From: a virus
Taxonomy: Duplodnaviria > Caudoviricetes
Strand: one strand, 5' to 3'
IMG/VR virus record: IMGVR_UViG_3300002220_000519
Span: 1 to 64,000 of that record
DNA: 64,000 bases
The position numbers and the translations under genes were made by a program. Positions 5,574 through 34,820 of this stretch are shown in pieces; the first letter of the stretch is position 1; each line of letters begins with the position of its first letter. The notes beneath the pieces were generated by a model that searched no databases, was not told the origin of the DNA, and was given only the letters and a program-made list of their open reading frames with translations.

Positions 5574-6027
5574 TGGCAGGTCAGCTGGGACTCGAACCCA
5601 GGTCTTGAAATTATTTTGTGTTTTGGAGACTATTTGTGGTGTAATTGATGTAATACAAAGGAGTGATCAATATGCCCACAAAAGAATGGCGAGATTGCCA
5701 CAAAAATGAACTTAGAGCGTATAGACGCAAATGGTATGCTAGTAATAAAAAGCATGCTATAAATAAGGTAATGACTCGTAAGCATGCAACTAGAGTATGG
5801 CTAAATAAACTGAAGGAAGATAGGGGTTGTGCTCTGTGCGGCGAAAATGACGCAATTTGTTTAGATTTTCATCATAGAGCTGATAAACAGTTTCATCTTT
5901 CACGGGCACCTGCTCTTGGGTGGTCAAGAGCACGTATATTAGTAGAAGTTGCTAAGTGTGATGTTCTTTGTGCTAATTGTCATAGAAAGTTACATAGGCC
6001 TATTCTACCCAGTTGAAATACCGACCT
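5574..6027 (-). other. Split tRNA-Trp-like scaffold: 5' half ~5997-6027, 3' half 5574-~5606, enclosing an antisense HNH gene
   Basis: 5' AGGTCGG-TA-TTTC-AACTGGGTA-GAAT-A and 3' CTGGG-TTCGAGT-CCCAG-CTGACCT-G-CCA; the 7-bp acceptor stem pairs; no anticodon arm. Confidence 0.75.
5672..6016 (+). CDS. HNH endonuclease
   Basis: CALCG...LDFHH...KCDVLCANCHRKLH; AAGGAG RBS; own extended -10 TGTGGTGTAAT at ~5636-5646. Confidence 0.9.
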   Translation: MPTKEWRDCHKNELRAYRRKWYASNKKHAINKVMTRKHATRVWLNKLKEDRGCALCGENDAICLDFHHRADKQFHLSRAPALGWSRARILVEVAKCDVLCANCHRKLHRPILPS

Positions 6028-6033
6028 ACATCT

Positions 6034-6579
6034 TTAACTTTTCCAATATGTTTTGACTGCTTTACGCACGTCTTTGTAGTATATGTCGTTGAGGCTTATA
6101 TTACCTTTTAGTGTTGTATTACACTTTTTGACAAGTACAGGAACAACACCAGTACTGACCATATCTAGGTTTTGTGCCATAATTTCAGATACATCAAGCT
6201 TTCTAAGCGGGTCTTCAGGAACCAGAGGGCCGCGGTCTAACACCATGCCATATGTCATCTTACCATTTAGAAGGTTTGTTACAGAGATAATAGTTCCAAG
6301 TGGATAGTCCCAAGAAGCACACATTGGTAAGTTTTTATCAAATGGAATACCAGATGCAGTTCTTCTTCCTTGGTGATGGTCGCCGTAGAAAGATGATCTG
6401 CAGAGCTGACCCTTGGTTAAAGCTATTAGTGCTACACAGTTATTTAACTGTGTTTGTGTACTATCAAGCTGGGCAGAAAGCTTGTCTATTTTTACCTTAT
6501 AGTCGTTGTCTTCTCTTACCCAAATAGACATAAGGATAATGAAAGTAATAAGTGCTATAAACGGATACGGTGTTTTCAT
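6034..6579 (-). CDS. rlpA: RlpA-like (DPBB) lytic transglycosylase with N-terminal membrane anchor
   Basis: SSFYGDHHQGRRTASG.PFD...A...PLGT...VTNL.NGK.....LDRGP....RKLDVS. Confidence 0.8.
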   Translation of the reverse strand: MKTPYPFIALITFIILMSIWVREDNDYKVKIDKLSAQLDSTQTQLNNCVALIALTKGQLCRSSFYGDHHQGRRTASGIPFDKNLPMCASWDYPLGTIISVTNLLNGKMTYGMVLDRGPLVPEDPLRKLDVSEIMAQNLDMVSTGVVPVLVKKCNTTLKGNISLNDIYYKDVRKAVKTYWKS

Positions 6580-6581
6580 TT

Positions 6582-6815
6582 TTACTCTTTTATTATTATT
6601 TCAAACTCTTTTATCAGCTTCTCAACCATTGTTTCGTATGATCCTTTGTGTTCATAGGAGTAGAATTGTAAGTATATTTTTCCATCTCGTTCAACAATCC
6701 TGACTTTATCGGTGGCGTCATAACCACCGCAATCAACTGCAAAAAGTTCTAATGTCTTTTCTTTTTCATATTCTTTTTCACAGAACTGCTTCCAGAGCAC
6801 TTTCCACCCTTCCAT
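6582..6815 (-). CDS. Hypothetical protein
   Basis: ORF in a tightly packed operon. Confidence 0.5.
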   Translation of the reverse strand: MEGWKVLWKQFCEKEYEKEKTLELFAVDCGGYDATDKVRIVERDGKIYLQFYSYEHKGSYETMVEKLIKEFEIIIKE

Positions 6816-6816
6816 G

Positions 6817-7086
6817 TTATCTCCATCCTTTTTCTAGTTTCTGGAGATCATGCAATATATACTGTTGTGCACATAAACAGCAATACGCTTCTGCTTGTAA
6901 CTTAAAGGTTTTGTCATCTCTTCTTGTAAGTACCAACCCCTTGTATTTGTTGCAGTGGTATCTATATGGACTACCTGCAAATCTCCTCATTCTTCGGTAA
7001 GATATCTTAATAGGTGTGCTATGTATGTTTTTTCCTATTTCCTCGTTGAGCAGGAGAGAGCCGTTTGGGTCTAGCGGGTTTTTCAT
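6817..7086 (-). CDS. Hypothetical protein
   Basis: ORF in a tightly packed operon. Confidence 0.5.
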   Translation of the reverse strand: MKNPLDPNGSLLLNEEIGKNIHSTPIKISYRRMRRFAGSPYRYHCNKYKGLVLTRRDDKTFKLQAEAYCCLCAQQYILHDLQKLEKGWR

Positions 7087-7222
7087 CTTTTGGCTTAAAT
7101 ATGTTCTTTTTTAGGGCCATGCTAGCTGCTAATAAAACTGCTAGCATTTTGTTTATGTCTTTTGGGTTACCAGCCATATAGACTTCATTGTTATTCAGAG
7201 TTATTATAGCATACCAGTTGAG

Positions 7223-7513
7223 TTATAACCCCATATCTGTTATATTGTTACTACACTGCTTTCTAAAAGCTGGTATAGTCATAAATAGTACGACAATTAC
7301 TGCTATCTGTAAAAGGAAGAGCCCTATAGCAGTAAGGCCAGAGGACAGCCCCATATCTATTATAATACCAATAAAGCAAAAGATGACTAAAGATATAAGC
7401 AAATACTCGATGTTCTTTACACCTAGTAGCCATTTGCAAATACTGGGGGCCAGTATAAATATGGCGGCTACTATACCAAAAAGTAGGTAAAGTGTTAGTA
7501 GATACAGCATCAT
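7223..7513 (-). CDS. Three-TM membrane protein
   Basis: Three hydrophobic helices; AGGAG RBS. Confidence 0.55.
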   Translation of the reverse strand: MMLYLLTLYLLFGIVAAIFILAPSICKWLLGVKNIEYLLISLVIFCFIGIIIDMGLSSGLTAIGLFLLQIAVIVVLFMTIPAFRKQCSNNITDMGL

Positions 7514-7780
7514 AAGCTCCTATTTAAGGTTTGGGTTGTGTGCTATATAATCGTCAACGGCAGAATAGAGAACCGATTTTACAAGGTCTGTTGCATTAGA
7601 AGCAGCAATACCTTTACGTATTCGTTCAATAGCAGCTCTGTCAGGTTTCTTTTCCAGAGCGCTTAATAGTTTATGTATAAGATCGTTGGTCATACGATAT
7701 TGTGGTGGAGCTGACTGGGATCGAACCAGTCGTTGAAGCATTTTGGTATTAGCTAAGTTATTGTGGTATAATAGTATATA

Positions 7781-7855
7781 TGGTGGAGGTAGCAGGATTT
7801 GAACCCGCGCATATCTGGTCGCAAACCAGACGCCTTACCACTTGGCCATACCCCC
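7781..7855 (-). tRNA. tRNA-Ala(UGC)
   Basis: Full cloverleaf; anticodon arm TCTGG-TTTGCGA-CCAGA; G3.U70; encoded CCA. Confidence 0.92.
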
Positions 7856-7876
7856 AATTTAACTATAGGATTAACT

Positions 7877-8419
7877 ATGTATTCAACTAATGATACTGGA
7901 AAACGATCCTTCTTCACATGTGAAGTTTGTGAAAAGAGTTTTAGTATACCAACACGATTTCTTTCACGTAAGGATGATCATATAAAGCATAAGTACTGCT
8001 CTAAGATCTGTTCTAGCTTTGCTAGGAGAAAGCGGGTTATAGTTACTCGTTTAGTGTGTAATAAGGCTATAGAAAGGACTGAGTCAAAACTTAGAAAGTC
8101 TAAACACGGATTACATTTTTGTAGTAGGGCTTGTAAAGATAAGGCACAACGTATAGATGGTATAAGGGCTATGCACCCACCACATTATGGTGATGGTAAA
8201 TGTGATTATAGAAGACGAGCTATTGAATATTATGGTTGTAAATGTGCAGTTTGTGACATTACTGAAATAGGTATGTTAGATGTACATCATATAGACGAAG
8301 ATAGGGCAAACAATGCAATAGATAATCTTATTGTACTATGTGCTAATCATCATGTTTTAGTAACTAGAGGATTAGCTAATATAGTAGATAGACAGTTACA
8401 TATGTGCTCTACCAAGTGA
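7877..8419 (+). CDS. HNH endonuclease with N-terminal Zn-finger (TRASH-like) repeats
   Basis: CEVCEK...YCSKIC...FCSRACK; CAVCD...LDVHHIDEDRANNAIDNLIVLCANHH; TGTGGTATAAT at 7762-7772. Confidence 0.9.
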   Translation: MYSTNDTGKRSFFTCEVCEKSFSIPTRFLSRKDDHIKHKYCSKICSSFARRKRVIVTRLVCNKAIERTESKLRKSKHGLHFCSRACKDKAQRIDGIRAMHPPHYGDGKCDYRRRAIEYYGCKCAVCDITEIGMLDVHHIDEDRANNAIDNLIVLCANHHVLVTRGLANIVDRQLHMCSTK

Positions 8420-8436
8420 GCTACAGCCCCACATAT

Positions 8437-9460: not shown

Positions 9461-10249
9461 TTATTTCCTTTCGTACTTGTGTGGGAATAACAGCTTGTCT
9501 CCTAGTCTAAACACCCTGTCTTGTATAAAGCCAATTAGGACAATAACTAGTAATACTGCAAACACCTTGTCCATACGGCTTTGTCTGGCTGCGGCAAAGG
9601 CCATAGAGCCAAGCCCGCCAGTACGATTTACTAGTTCAGCAACAATTATATATGTCCAACTTATTGCAACTAGTACTCTTATATCATCTGATATTCTTTG
9701 CATGACCGCAGGTATAAAGACTGTTACTATATATTGAAAGCGTGTTGCACCAAGAGTTCTGGCTGTTTGAACATAGACCTCTTCTACTTCGTCTATTCGT
9801 TGTATAACCACAGGCAACAGATAGACAAATATACCAAAGGCCAGGAACATAACCTTCATATTAGTTTCTATGCCGAACCACGCAATAAATATTCCGGTCA
9901 GAGCGGTTATAGGCAGGTAGCGCGAGCTTTCTATGTAGCGCGAAAATAGGCTTCGAAAGAACGGAAATAGGCCTGTAGGGAAGCCAATAAGTAGTGCAGC
10001 TACAACAGCATAGACGTAACCTAAGATGTTTAGCTGTAATGAGTAAAGCATGTTACGTACTAAAGCATCTTCAAAGTGTAGCTCTTTGAAAGATGACAGT
10101 ACTTTCCATGGAGCAGGTAGAATGGAACTAGGCAATATATGACTACCTGTAATTATAGACCAGGTAGTTAATATAATGATGAAGCCAGAGAGTTCAATGA
10201 ATACTGCTGCTTTCTTTGATATCTGACCTCTAGGCTTAAACAGTTCCAT
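9461..10249 (-). CDS. ABC transporter permease, SsuC/TauC-like
   Basis: ILPAPWKV; EAA-like loop TARTLGAT; IRVLVAISWTYIIVAEL; GGLG. Confidence 0.9.
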   Translation of the reverse strand: MELFKPRGQISKKAAVFIELSGFIIILTTWSIITGSHILPSSILPAPWKVLSSFKELHFEDALVRNMLYSLQLNILGYVYAVVAALLIGFPTGLFPFFRSLFSRYIESSRYLPITALTGIFIAWFGIETNMKVMFLAFGIFVYLLPVVIQRIDEVEEVYVQTARTLGATRFQYIVTVFIPAVMQRISDDIRVLVAISWTYIIVAELVNRTGGLGSMAFAAARQSRMDKVFAVLLVIVLIGFIQDRVFRLGDKLLFPHKYERK

Positions 10250-10499
10250 TCAGTTCCCTTCTCTTAAGTTCTGCTGCTAAGTCTGTCTTAATGTCTTGTA
10301 TAGTTTTTGCGTGCTGATCAAGTGCTTTACCCATTTCTTCGGTAATACTAAGTGCAGACGCCTGCATTTTTTCTATAGCTGCTAGGTGGGCCAAAATCGC
10401 TTCCCATTCTTCCCTAAGAATTGTAGTTCGTTCTACAACTATATGGTTTCCAGAGGTAAACTTCTTAGTTAATGAGTCAAACGCATCTTTGAATAACAT
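10236..10499 (-). CDS. Hypothetical protein
   Basis: AAGGAGA RBS; overlaps the permease start. Confidence 0.55.
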   Translation of the reverse strand: MLFKDAFDSLTKKFTSGNHIVVERTTILREEWEAILAHLAAIEKMQASALSITEEMGKALDQHAKTIQDIKTDLAAELKRRELNGTV

Positions 10500-10533
10500 G
10501 CTTGTTTCTCCTTATATGTTTAAGAGAACTATA

Positions 10534-10745
10534 AGAGTAGCTTAGAACTACTAGCACAGCAGTCTTGACAGCGGTATACGGTCTTTTGGTCGTGCTTGGC
10601 CAACCGTCTCACGCACTACTCGCCGAGTCTCCAGCTCGATATGTGCACCCACGATTATAGTTCAGACCCAGAACCCAATTCATTAGAATCGTTATTCCGT
10701 TCTGTAACAGAACGATAGTACAAAGTACAAGTTCTGGGCTACTCT
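10534..10745. ncRNA. Candidate ~210-nt rod-like structured RNA (6S-like architecture)
   Basis: Ends AGAGTAGCTTAGAACT and AGTTCTGGGCTACTCT pair over 16 bp with two G.U pairs on the plus strand; further inner stems and a central bubble. Confidence 0.45.
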
Positions 10746-10746
10746 A

Positions 10747-12279
10747 TTAGTCCAAAAGCTCAAAGTCTGTTCTTCTGTTTTTGGCGCGTCCACCTGACGT
10801 AGTATTATCTGCTACTGGGTTATTAGGACCGTTTCCAAGTATGACAAAACGGTCGGGGTCATAGCGATAGCTGGTAACTAAGTAGTTCCCAACAGCTTTG
10901 GCACGACGCAACGAGAGCTCACGGTTGTAGGCAGGGTCTCCGGTATTGTCAGTGTTTCCTTCAATGCGTAAGCGTGCTCTTGCAAAGCCAGCTGCGATTG
11001 GTCCAAGCTGTTGGTCAATAACATATTTTGCGTCATCACTTAGTATGTCTGAGTCTATGGCAAAGTTTACTGTTATGCGCTTTGTTGTAACAGCAGCCTT
11101 TGTATATTCTTTGGCTGTTGGTTTGGCAAAGTCTTCTTCTTGTTCTGCGGCGTTTGCGCTCCCGGTTAGGTCTGATATGTTATTAAGAACCTTTGTACTG
11201 GAGATCGTACGCCAGTTTGGAAACTTGGCTGGGGTAAACCCTAATGTCATAAAGTTGTCAGCCATAGTATTGTACAGCTTTTCGCCGGTCATACCGCTGT
11301 AACCAGAAGCCAGACCAAAGAAGTTTAAGTTGTCGCCATAGGTACATAAGTAAGCGTTGTCTACAGCTAATTCCATAAAGTCGAGCTTTTGTCCCATACC
11401 GTCGGCCAGCATCTGTGCAGCTTCTTTTCTGGCAGCTTTATTCATGTTTAGGGTGGCGTTGGCTTCTAACCAACCCTCAACAATGCCTGTTAGCACTTTT
11501 TCGTTCTTTTCTAAATAAGAGCGCTTAACGAAGAATACGTCTGCTATGATATTGCTGGCCTGTTTTGTTGACCTAAGAACCTTGGCGCCGCGTACTGCCT
11601 GTACGCAGTCTTCGTCGTCTGGACTCCATACAACGGCGGCGTCGACTTTTCCAGCTTTAAAATAGCTGGCCGCATCAATTGCTGATGGGGCTTCAATGAT
11701 CTTAAGGTCGCTGTAGTCAATAGAACTTGCCATTAGCATACTGATAAGCAGCGTATGACTTGGCTGCGCAAAAGCGACTGCAACTTTCTTTCCTTTCAGA
11801 TCTTCGAACGAATTAATGCCTGGTCGTACGACAATAGCATCTCCACCTCGGGACCAGTCAATTTGGAATACTATGACTGGTTCTTGTTCTGCTAAGGCCC
11901 CGGCGAATGTTGAAAATACGTCGGCGGTGGTCCACATCAGGTCAACTTCATTAGCTTTCCACGCTTCTCTGGCTACGGCTGGATCGTCGATTAACTTGAA
12001 CTCGACGTTCATACCGTATTTCTTAGTGTATTCGCTTTCGGAGTTTGGTTTAAAGCCCTTGTTGTACCAAACGCCGCCGGCAAACCCGCCCCAGGTATTT
12101 ACGCAGATCTTGACGGTTTTCTTACCGAAAAGCGGGGTCGAGCTTTTGGTTTCGCCCTTGCCGGTTGGGGCAATGGAATTGAGCCAGCCGTTCTTGTTTG
12201 CCATTGTTCCTAGGCCAACTAACCCGCCTAATATAATGGCGATTAGTATAACCTTTGATAAGGGTGTAGGTTTGACCAT
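10747..12279 (-). CDS. ABC substrate-binding protein (NMT1/SsuA-like) fused to a C-terminal OmpA peptidoglycan-binding domain
   Basis: NTWGG, DWSRGGDAIV, DLKGKKVAV; VNFAIDSD...IEGNTDNTG...NRELSLRRAKAV...NRRTDF. Confidence 0.9.
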   Translation of the reverse strand: MVKPTPLSKVILIAIILGGLVGLGTMANKNGWLNSIAPTGKGETKSSTPLFGKKTVKICVNTWGGFAGGVWYNKGFKPNSESEYTKKYGMNVEFKLIDDPAVAREAWKANEVDLMWTTADVFSTFAGALAEQEPVIVFQIDWSRGGDAIVVRPGINSFEDLKGKKVAVAFAQPSHTLLISMLMASSIDYSDLKIIEAPSAIDAASYFKAGKVDAAVVWSPDDEDCVQAVRGAKVLRSTKQASNIIADVFFVKRSYLEKNEKVLTGIVEGWLEANATLNMNKAARKEAAQMLADGMGQKLDFMELAVDNAYLCTYGDNLNFFGLASGYSGMTGEKLYNTMADNFMTLGFTPAKFPNWRTISSTKVLNNISDLTGSANAAEQEEDFAKPTAKEYTKAAVTTKRITVNFAIDSDILSDDAKYVIDQQLGPIAAGFARARLRIEGNTDNTGDPAYNRELSLRRAKAVGNYLVTSYRYDPDRFVILGNGPNNPVADNTTSGGRAKNRRTDFELLD

Positions 12280-12306
12280 GGTACCTCCTTTTTGTAGTTA
12301 CAATGA

Positions 12307-13377
12307 TTAATTTATCAGTCTCTCGTATTTGGTTTTTCGTGGAACTAATTCTGGTTCTCTTGAATCGAAGTTAAGAATGTTGTCTGGGTTTGCAGACTGG
12401 GCAATAAGCAGCTTTTTCTCACTGGTTGGAAGCAAGATCATTTCTTCGCTCCTTTTCTCCCAGGCTTGTAGCATGTCTAGCCCTCTGGCTTCGAACATAC
12501 CATTCTGTAAGTCAACGCCGTCCATAAAGCTTTGGGAGATTTCTGTAAATCTTTCCATCTCTCCTATTTGTTGGCCTAGGCGCTCGGTTATGATCTCGAT
12601 AGTTTGCTGATATACTTCCATCTCGTCTCGGTCGCCATTTATAACTCTGCCAGCTGCTTGCATAGCACTCCAGCCTGCTTGTATAGATTTCCACTCGGCT
12701 TCACGTTGTTCGATCTCATCTGCTGTGTCTTCAAAGGCAACCTGGCCAGCTTGGTACATTTTGGACAGAACACGGTACATAAGCTCCATTTTCTGGTGTA
12801 AGTCTGTAAGCCGTATATTTGAGTTTTCTCTTCTGCCTGCCTTTCTTGTTTGTAGAGCTATTTGGCCCATCATTCTTAGACGCTCTTCATCCGTAGCCTT
12901 TGGCAGCCGTGTTTTAGCGTGAGAAGCAATGGACATACTTTGTTCAGCAGTCTTTGCGTTTTCCTCTATCTTTTGTGTAAGCTGTCGCATTACACCTTTA
13001 AGTTTACCGATAGAGGCGTTCATCTTCTCTAAGTTGCTGCTCATAGACTGTAGCCGAGTTTTGAGTACAGCTATTGGGTCTAGGGTTATAAACAACCCAG
13101 TAAGCTTGCGCATAACTACCTTATAAAGAATGCCTACCCTTATCCAGAACTTACGATCTAATAGAACGTAGAGCAAAGCTCCAGCTACTGTAAGCATCAG
13201 GATAAAGGTTATAAGGTTCTGTGTGAATAAGATAAGCCAAGGCAATATCTTAGCAAACAGCATTATCCCTCCAACACCTAATAGTGCCATAAAGAACATG
13301 CCGACTTTTCCTTCTGGTCTATCCCAGAAGGATCTCAGCTTTTGCTCTAGGCCTTGCGGTACCAATCCGTTTTCCAT
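12307..13377 (-). CDS. PspA/IM30-like coiled-coil protein with two N-terminal TM helices
   Basis: FWDRPEGK + 2 TM + DPIAVLK followed by a long coiled coil. Confidence 0.6.
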   Translation of the reverse strand: MENGLVPQGLEQKLRSFWDRPEGKVGMFFMALLGVGGIMLFAKILPWLILFTQNLITFILMLTVAGALLYVLLDRKFWIRVGILYKVVMRKLTGLFITLDPIAVLKTRLQSMSSNLEKMNASIGKLKGVMRQLTQKIEENAKTAEQSMSIASHAKTRLPKATDEERLRMMGQIALQTRKAGRRENSNIRLTDLHQKMELMYRVLSKMYQAGQVAFEDTADEIEQREAEWKSIQAGWSAMQAAGRVINGDRDEMEVYQQTIEIITERLGQQIGEMERFTEISQSFMDGVDLQNGMFEARGLDMLQAWEKRSEEMILLPTSEKKLLIAQSANPDNILNFDSREPELVPRKTKYERLIN

Positions 13378-34791: not shown

Positions 34792-34820
34792 TTGACTTTT
34801 AAGGTAAAATGTGGTATAAT
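34792..34820 (+). promoter_or_regulatory. Sigma-70-type promoter
   Basis: TTGACT-17 nt-TATAAT with extended TG. Confidence 0.85.

Follow-up and report, generated by a model that had tools for sequence, protein, structure and literature searches.

Two tRNA genes of an uncultured large phage divided by free-standing HNH endonuclease genes

In phage T5, HNH nicking enzymes are encoded as free-standing genes in clusters of transfer RNA (tRNA) genes, a mode of life called 'intronless homing'. To our knowledge, the homing endonucleases in the tRNA clusters of phages T4 and T5 are known only as neighbours of intact tRNA genes. SegB of phage T4, a free-standing endonuclease in the tRNA cluster, has a 27-bp site that includes the T-psi-C motif, cuts inside tRNA genes and carries flanking tRNA genes along (PMC2330249). 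Protein genes, in turn, can be fractured: a free-standing homing endonuclease divides the gene, and split inteins mend the product, as reported by Dassa et al. (2009; PMC2677866). Here we analyze a stretch of 64,000 nucleotides (nt) from an uncultured large phage (positions 1 to 64,000 of IMG/VR record IMGVR_UViG_3300002220_000519; hereafter the window), in which two tRNA genes are each divided by an HNH endonuclease gene. Element 1 (e1; 5574-6027) consists of a Trp-like split tRNA with its HNH gene and element 2 (e2; 7703-8430) of an Ala-like split tRNA with its HNH gene. The contig of this phage comprises 85,406 nt, and the same proteins are also found on an assembly of 210,996 nt.

Both elements stand closest to the known free-standing homing endonucleases; they differ from these in the position of the nuclease gene inside a tRNA gene and, in e2, in the presence of a spare tRNA. 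As in the case of SegB of phages T4 and T6, the nuclease gene is free-standing, has expression signals of its own and lies among phage tRNA genes. Unlike SegB, which is a GIY-YIG enzyme encoded between intact tRNA genes, the HNH genes of e1 and e2 lie inside a tRNA gene of which two dead halves are left, and e2 carries a replacement tRNA of the same identity. Group I introns of bacterial and phage tRNA genes, which may or may not contain an endonuclease ORF and can home in collaboration with a free-standing endonuclease nearby, have the same target, the anticodon loop or arm, and one such intron occurs beside an HNH gene of the e2 family (locus L182, see below); in contrast to these introns, e1 and e2 have no ribozyme core, their open reading frame (ORF) is antisense, the anticodon arm is partly deleted and the tRNA cannot be restored. 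In transfer-messenger RNA (tmRNA), the 5' and 3' ends form a tRNA-like domain that is charged by alanyl-tRNA synthetase (AlaRS) via G3:U70. The ends of e2 can likewise pair into an acceptor stem and T arm of alanine type that enclose a large insert, but e2 has neither a tag reading frame nor pseudoknots, contains a full D arm and gives no match at threshold, while the same topology also arises from Arg and Trp-like tRNAs. The free-standing endonuclease gene between the halves of a host gene recalls the fractured genes (PMC2677866); unlike their repair by a trans-splicing intein, the function in e2 would be restored by an imported second copy, and the halves appear dead. Full-text literature searches returned no earlier account of an endonuclease cassette that divides a tRNA gene and brings a replacement tRNA with it.

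Anatomy of the two split tRNA genes

All genes around 5.3-9.1 kb are encoded on the minus strand, except for the two HNH genes on the plus strand. Split tRNAs were sought with a custom detector that takes a T arm with canonical loop and a 7-nt acceptor strand as anchor and then looks, up to 3 kb upstream, for an acceptor strand that pairs at every position, with U8 and a D arm after it. On the 85,406-nt contig it reported e1 and e2 only, in addition to seven normal tRNAs, and on 2.16 Mb of reversed control loci it returned nothing longer than 100 nt. A first-pass annotation of the sequence had already placed two split tRNAs enclosing plus-strand HNH genes at 5574-6027 and 7703-8430, and these coordinates are exact. 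Its description of e2 holds for the split tRNA and overlooked a complete tRNA-Ala(UGC) nested in the insert. The two elements are built up as follows, including both copies of a 15-mer discussed below.

Element 1
5574-5606, minus strand: 3' piece of the Trp-like tRNA, with a variable loop of about 5 nt, T arm CTGGG TTCGAGT CCCAG, acceptor strand CTGACCT, G73 and CCA
5613-5645, plus strand: promoter of the HNH gene, ATTTTGT, 16 nt, then TGTGGTGTAAT, of the phage's generic promoter class
5672-6016, plus strand: HNH endonuclease of 114 amino acids (phrog_3106, 2e-19), with ribosome-binding site AGGAG at 5659-5663
5982-5996, plus strand: first copy of the 15-mer, encoding H-R-K-L-H in the catalytic motif CANCHRKLH
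5996-6027, minus strand: 5' piece of the Trp-like tRNA, AGGTCGG TA TTTC AACTGGGTA GAAT A GGCCT, positions 1 to about 31

Element 2
7703-7740, minus strand: 3' piece of the tRNA-Ala, with TGCTT (the probable 39-43 strand), variable region CAACG, T arm ACTGG TTCGATC CCAGT, acceptor strand CAGCTCC, A73 and CCA
7743-7772, plus strand: promoter, TTGGTA, 18 nt, TATAAT with TG, 10/12 and the best of the region, preceded by an ATTTTG element
7781-7855, minus strand: nested intact tRNA-Ala(UGC), 68.4 bits, with G3:U70
7877-8419, plus strand: HNH endonuclease of 180 amino acids (phrog_1271, 3e-21), with zinc-ribbon-like CxxC repeats and an HNH_3 core
8388-8402, plus strand: second copy of the 15-mer, encoding D-R-Q-L-H, at the family's native C-terminal [IV]DRKL motif
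8404-8430, minus strand: 5' piece of the tRNA-Ala, GGGGCTG TA GCTC ACTTGGTA GAGC A C, positions 1-27, with a canonical D arm

Acceptor stem, D arm, T arm and CCA can indeed pair across the inserts, as the annotation proposed. In e1 the acceptor stem is complete (7/7, one G-U), three of the four D-stem pairs form, the T arm is perfect and the end reads GCCA; A1:U72 and G73 would presumably fit the identity elements of tRNA-Trp. Rfam gives a weak partial tRNA match at 5585-5605 in the 3' piece. The strand complementary to GGCCT is absent and the anticodon is not retained. The halves of e2 pair in all seven acceptor positions, including G3:U70, and perfectly in both D and T arms, and they end in ACCA. 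Roughly positions 28-36 are missing together with the anticodon; in an alignment with an intact tRNA, the 3' piece begins to match at position 29. When run in intron mode, ARAGORN reports e2 as a tRNA-Val, with a forced anticodon arm and an "intron" of 649 nt. This is a risk for annotation, as split halves and nested tRNAs can easily be mistaken for tRNAs with an intron.

The two HNH proteins belong to different families (BLASTP E 0.037; phrog_3106 versus phrog_1271), in line with the different subfamilies noted in the first-pass annotation, and compared with each other the two elements score a BLAST E of 0.034. In both proteins every invariant residue of the respective family is kept and an HNH core from the PDB is matched. 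Promoter-like sites and ribosome-binding sites are located upstream of both genes, in agreement with the claim that each has its own extended -10 promoter. Both ORFs have lost their own tail and continue into sequence that is antisense to the tRNA 5' piece: the last six codons of e1 (RPILPS) and the last codons of e2 (MCSTK), each with the TGA stop, are antisense of that piece, and the stop itself is antisense of the D-loop TCA. The insert of e1 has only 66 nt outside this antisense ORF. In e2 the nested tRNA-Ala(UGC) has the same orientation as the split tRNA, both being on the minus strand, and the two sequences are very different, with a non-canonical D arm in the nested gene (TG GCCA AGTGGTAA GGC). 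A tRNA-Trp was found neither in the window nor in the whole 85-kb contig; since the insert of e1 also contains no replacement, its insertion appears to have simply removed the tRNA, as far as the 85 kb show.

Group I and group II intron models of Rfam (including RF00028), searched in narrow windows of 471 nt (e1) and 746 nt (e2) at E<=10, gave no match, as expected from the annotation, which saw no room for such a core. The group I intron in the tRNA-Ala of L182 served as positive control and was recovered at 55.6 bits with the same procedure; the narrow windows matter because this intron was missed in a wider search (14.6 kb) and found in a window of 341 nt. A group I or II intron was rejected on the grounds that a ribozyme core is undetected and that about 10 nt of each anticodon arm, including the anticodon, are missing, leaving the exons incomplete. 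An archaeal-type split tRNA or tRNA with a bulge-helix-bulge intron was discarded likewise, as the predicted folds show no helix closing the insert by the anticodon stem, of which one strand is lacking. The inserts carry only the HNH gene (plus the tRNA in e2) and show no repeated tRNA 3' segment, which speaks against insertion by an integrase. Their local GC content is similar to that of the surroundings and only the strand skew flips, so a foreign base composition was rejected as well. Judged by their sequences, the intact nuclease domains, the absence of an intron or intein together with own expression signals, and the linkage of family and target point to free-standing homing endonucleases.

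Shared junction motifs were also described in the first-pass annotation. For the 15-mer ATAGANAGTTACATA, the 14/15 identity and the coding of HRKLH in e1 and DRQLH in e2 are correct, and in the genome it is found at these two places only; its role as a motif marking the ends of the elements does not hold. On the evidence of the homologous sequences, the 15-mer reflects the codons for the C-terminal peptide native to each family (CANCHRKLH and [IV]DRKL, respectively). C, N, C, H and R of CANCHRKLH are invariant in the e1 family, and homologues of this family in unrelated phages, outside any tRNA (L250, L253, L234; L numbers are locus labels), share 13-14 of the 15 positions and encode the same peptide, while L244 encodes HRKLH with quite different codons. 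GAT, AGA, TTA and CAT of the 15-mer are preferred codons in both AT-rich ORFs, and we estimate the chance of the DNA identity, given the peptides, at 2-7%. The 15-mer lies at the junction because both HNH ORFs end there. A search of IMG/VR for the 15-mer, following the suggestion of the annotation to look beside other HNH genes and tRNA halves, yielded at least 120 matches, all in unrelated coding contexts and none next to a tRNA half, so that it occurs widely by chance; one repeated protein accounts for its three copies in L079. It is also missing from the comparable junctions in L193 and L244. Gene conversion between e1 and e2 was rejected as its source, since divergence starts right after CATA and P0068, a homologue from another sample, shares DRQLHM.

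The second proposed junction motif, TTGAA..ATTTTG..TTGTGGTrTAAT, dissolves into two parts. ATTTTG..TTGTGGTRTAAT is the phage's generic promoter, (A/T)TTTTG(T) followed after 15-16 nt by TGTGGTATAAT (extended -10), which occurs at 12 sites; it also stands at 34810, 39014 (before tRNA-Asp), 53469, 67631, 81543 and other sites. TTGAA comprises 5 nt only and is not part of the generic promoter sites. This promoter class precedes several genes and the tRNA-Asp and may mark one temporal class; the phage also encodes its own RNA polymerases.

Relatives of the two nucleases and their tRNA partners

Relatives of the HNH proteins were examined at 80 metagenomic and four IMG/VR loci for the e2 family and at 80 IMG/VR loci for the e1 family. 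The e2 family is linked to tRNA-Ala(UGC), which lies within 400 nt in 38 of the 80 metagenomic loci, mostly 0-50 nt from the ORF, and in all four IMG/VR loci; the next tRNA in the metagenomic set, Glu(CUC), is counted nine times. Partners of the e1 family are more varied, with some tRNA within 400 nt at 41/80 loci (Pro, Lys, Gly, Met, Arg and Trp, the last in L227 and L262).

The layout of e2 recurs in two of these loci. In L193 a tRNA-Ala is broken after position 33 and resumes at 44, and the insert holds an intact divergent tRNA-Ala(UGC) and an HNH gene of the e2 family. In L244 a tRNA-Arg(ACG) is broken after position 38 and resumes at 49, enclosing an intact tRNA-Arg(ACG) and an HNH gene of the e1 family. 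In both cases neither half is part of a complete tRNA, and a search for introns in these two loci found none. The HNH genes of L193 and L244 are sense to the split tRNA, those of e1 and e2 antisense, so the orientation is not a fixed property of the layout. Related states exist as well. In L152/L153 (Ala) and L262 (Trp), a canonical tRNA is represented by its initial 41-45 nt; a promoter and an HNH gene come next, and then an intact tRNA that has the same identity but a divergent sequence. L182 contains a canonical tRNA-Ala(UGC) with a group I intron (RF00028) at position 34/35 (552-861) and, downstream of a terminator, a free-standing HNH gene of the e2 family (995-1474), an arrangement that looks like collaborative homing. 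The closest homologue of the e2 HNH protein is P0068, with 63% identity.

The D arms of these tRNA-Ala(UGC) genes give a hint on recognition and immunity. A canonical D arm (TAGCTYA) is present in 6/32 copies within 400 nt of an e2-family HNH gene versus 14/23 others at the same loci (Fisher p 0.002, contigs being counted regardless of kinship), and in all four split, truncated or intron-bearing copies (e2, L193, L152 and L182; p 0.004 versus the linked copies, counted in the same way). Non-canonical D arms, such as that of the nested tRNA-Ala in e2, would fit a nuclease directed at the canonical gene sequence, with a cargo tRNA able to evade it. HNH-adjacent tRNA-Ala(UGC) genes in L154, L167, L151, L155 and L197 have, in addition, an aberrant T loop, GGATCGT(A/T)ACC instead of GGTTCGAATCC, which is a second non-canonical feature of HNH-linked tRNA-Ala besides the D arm.

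Several further loci are recorded here for their own sake. In L227 (637-3202), tRNA halves about 2.5 kb apart with perfectly complementary acceptor strands (GCGTCCT / AGGACGC) surround an apparently ribonucleotide-reductase-like gene, directly after an e1-family HNH gene whose ORF runs into the 5' half. L149 (279-556 and 1100-1170) shows a tmRNA match just over threshold (48.5 bits), then a degenerate mini tRNA-Ala without T arm (504-556) and, further on, an e2-family HNH gene followed by an intact tRNA-Ala(UGC). In many phage tRNA genes that ARAGORN did not call, matching halves are separated by inserts of 30-240 nt (L255:128-392, L264:297-562, L239:3673-3879, L294:1770-1962 and others); these are probably intron-containing tRNAs. 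In L200 (1350-1960), an e2-family HNH gene without its N-terminal part directly follows the C-terminal end of a TnpB-like ORF, which points to insertion of an IS200/IS605-type element into the endonuclease gene; the 3' end of this HNH gene adjoins a tRNA-Ala(GGC)-like gene on the minus strand.

Close relatives of the phage itself were sought by several routes. A blastn search with the locus and a tblastn search with the neighbouring polymerase of 813 amino acids gave no match among the INPHARED phages, the neighbouring DPBB lipoprotein led to no relatives in IMG/VR, and exact 25-mers of the 3' pieces of e1 and e2 had 0 matches in IMG/VR. A query with the ABC permease returned 23 loci that have only the transporter cassette in common, not the split-tRNA locus. 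The lipoprotein (6034-6579, minus strand) is a predicted protein of 181 amino acids with a DPBB (RlpA-like lytic transglycosylase) domain, encoded between the two split tRNAs. The phage-borne transporter cassette (9461-13377, minus strand) comprises a BPD_transp_1 permease (9461-10249), a 510-amino-acid binding protein of NMT1/phosphonate type with a fused C-terminal OmpA domain (10747-12279) and a 356-amino-acid protein without Pfam match (12307-13377); more than 20 large contigs of IMG/VR carry the same three genes as a group.

Proposed insertion into tRNA genes and its consequences

We propose that e1 and e2 are two independent free-standing HNH homing-endonuclease genes that were inserted in the anticodon arms of tRNA genes, and that the halves are the broken target without a role as RNA. 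We assign this reading a probability of about 80%. Of the two interpretations given in the first-pass annotation, that of a mobile, tRNA-targeting family of homing endonuclease genes that is not an intron is thereby supported by the tRNA linkage, the recurring layout and the missing intron match. Each HNH protein is predicted to recognize the DNA of the intact, canonical cognate tRNA gene in nuclease-free relatives, with a predicted cut in or near the anticodon arm. Repair would copy the cassette into the break, i.e., the HNH gene alone in e1 and the HNH gene with an immune tRNA in e2. Where homology of the flanks was lacking, joining would probably be non-homologous or rely on short homology, leaving both halves and losing about 10 nt. 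Because the insertion would destroy the recognition site, the carrier genome is predicted to be immune to its own enzyme. The nested divergent tRNA-Ala(UGC) of e2 would replace the lost function and is probably itself uncut.

A number of points weigh against this explanation. The insertion is deduced from anatomy and analogy and not from a before/after pair with an unbroken tRNA. The shells are almost undecayed, which fits a recent insertion and would also fit selection on the halves. P0068 seemingly ends in the same tRNA-antisense tail, a hint at a junction that is old or moves together with the element. Kinship among the contigs is not accounted for in the D-arm statistics. When the non-consensus His of e2 is taken into account, the coincidence of the 15-mer falls to about 0.2-0.5% by our own, post hoc estimate and leaves a residual.

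The halves might instead be leftovers of partial gene conversion or duplication driven by homing, in which case two tRNA copies would have left remnants that flank the cassette by chance. Loci with a 5' remnant and an intact tRNA do exist (L152/L153, L262, L149), and pairs of paralogous tRNAs around an HNH gene can mimic a shell (Lys/Lys in L239, Gln/Gln in L241). In e1 and e2, however, no half forms part of a complete tRNA, the acceptor strands pair 7/7 (with G3:U70 in e2) and only about 10 nt are missing, and we consider such an origin unlikely. The other interpretation of the first-pass annotation was a functional RNA in the form of a tmRNA-like scaffold, a stable antisense silencer of the HNH gene or a nuclease-proof tRNA mimic; the shell might be processed by RNase P and possibly accept alanine. 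G3:U70, the T arm and ACCA are the elements that AlaRS needs in minihelices and tmRNA, and e2 retains all three. Moreover, a 7-bp acceptor helix closes both minimum-energy folds, the halves are nearly undecayed, and a minus-strand transcript would necessarily be antisense to the HNH gene. Yet the energies of the whole-shell folds are ordinary (z-scores of -1.9 and -1.6), ARAGORN calls no tmRNA, and the Rfam tmRNA model matches e2 only over the 36-nt T-arm/acceptor end, at 20.7 bits versus a threshold of 47; a tmRNA or tRNA-like scaffold was rejected on this basis. Antisense control does not belong to the layout as such, because the HNH gene is sense to the shell in L193 and L244, and other loci show partial or decayed states. 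The argument from shared junction motifs fails as well, since these are a generic promoter and the codons of family peptides. A functional shell is in our judgment very unlikely.

Hardly credible, finally, is the view that the tRNAs are still made, either by removal of the insert at the RNA level as an unrecognized intron or by protein-dependent or trans splicing of the halves, as is known from archaeal split tRNAs. In related loci, group I introns are indeed found at this position (L182), and repair at the product level is reported for fractured genes around homing endonucleases (PMC2677866). Against this stand the lack of an intron model match and the mere 66 nt that e1 has outside its antisense ORF; in addition, e2 already has a predicted working tRNA-Ala. 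Even joined halves cannot give a tRNA, because no anticodon is left and the anticodon stem lacks one of its strands.

Under the insertion explanation, the tRNA shell is a scar of the insertion rather than a new kind of RNA, and reading it as a tRNA-shelled RNA is not supported. Observed directly are the anatomy of both elements, the absence of an intron match, the link of the e2 family to tRNA-Ala(UGC) and the recurrence of the layout elsewhere. Here and at comparable loci of unrelated metagenomes a nuclease gene is located inside a tRNA gene, and the halves record the rough site of the break. An HNH family tied to tRNA-Ala(UGC), in combination with the odd D arms of the linked tRNAs, provides a testable guess on the recognition target and on how the carrier escapes. 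Should this guess be right, selfish nucleases would replace phage tRNAs with variants, which would bear on the evolution of phage tRNA repertoires. A more far-reaching proposal, tentative and in our view doubtful, is that such cassettes act as a drive that rewrites the tRNA sets of phages: the HNH protein would destroy the gene of the canonical isoacceptor through its DNA from D arm to anticodon, and the cassette would install an uncuttable, non-canonical tRNA of the same identity. Split genes (e2, L193, L244), 5' remnants (L152, L262) and intron-protected targets (L182) would then be interchangeable states of one arms race, and the imported tRNAs, through their odd D arms, might also differ in sensitivity to tRNA-cleaving defences of the host.

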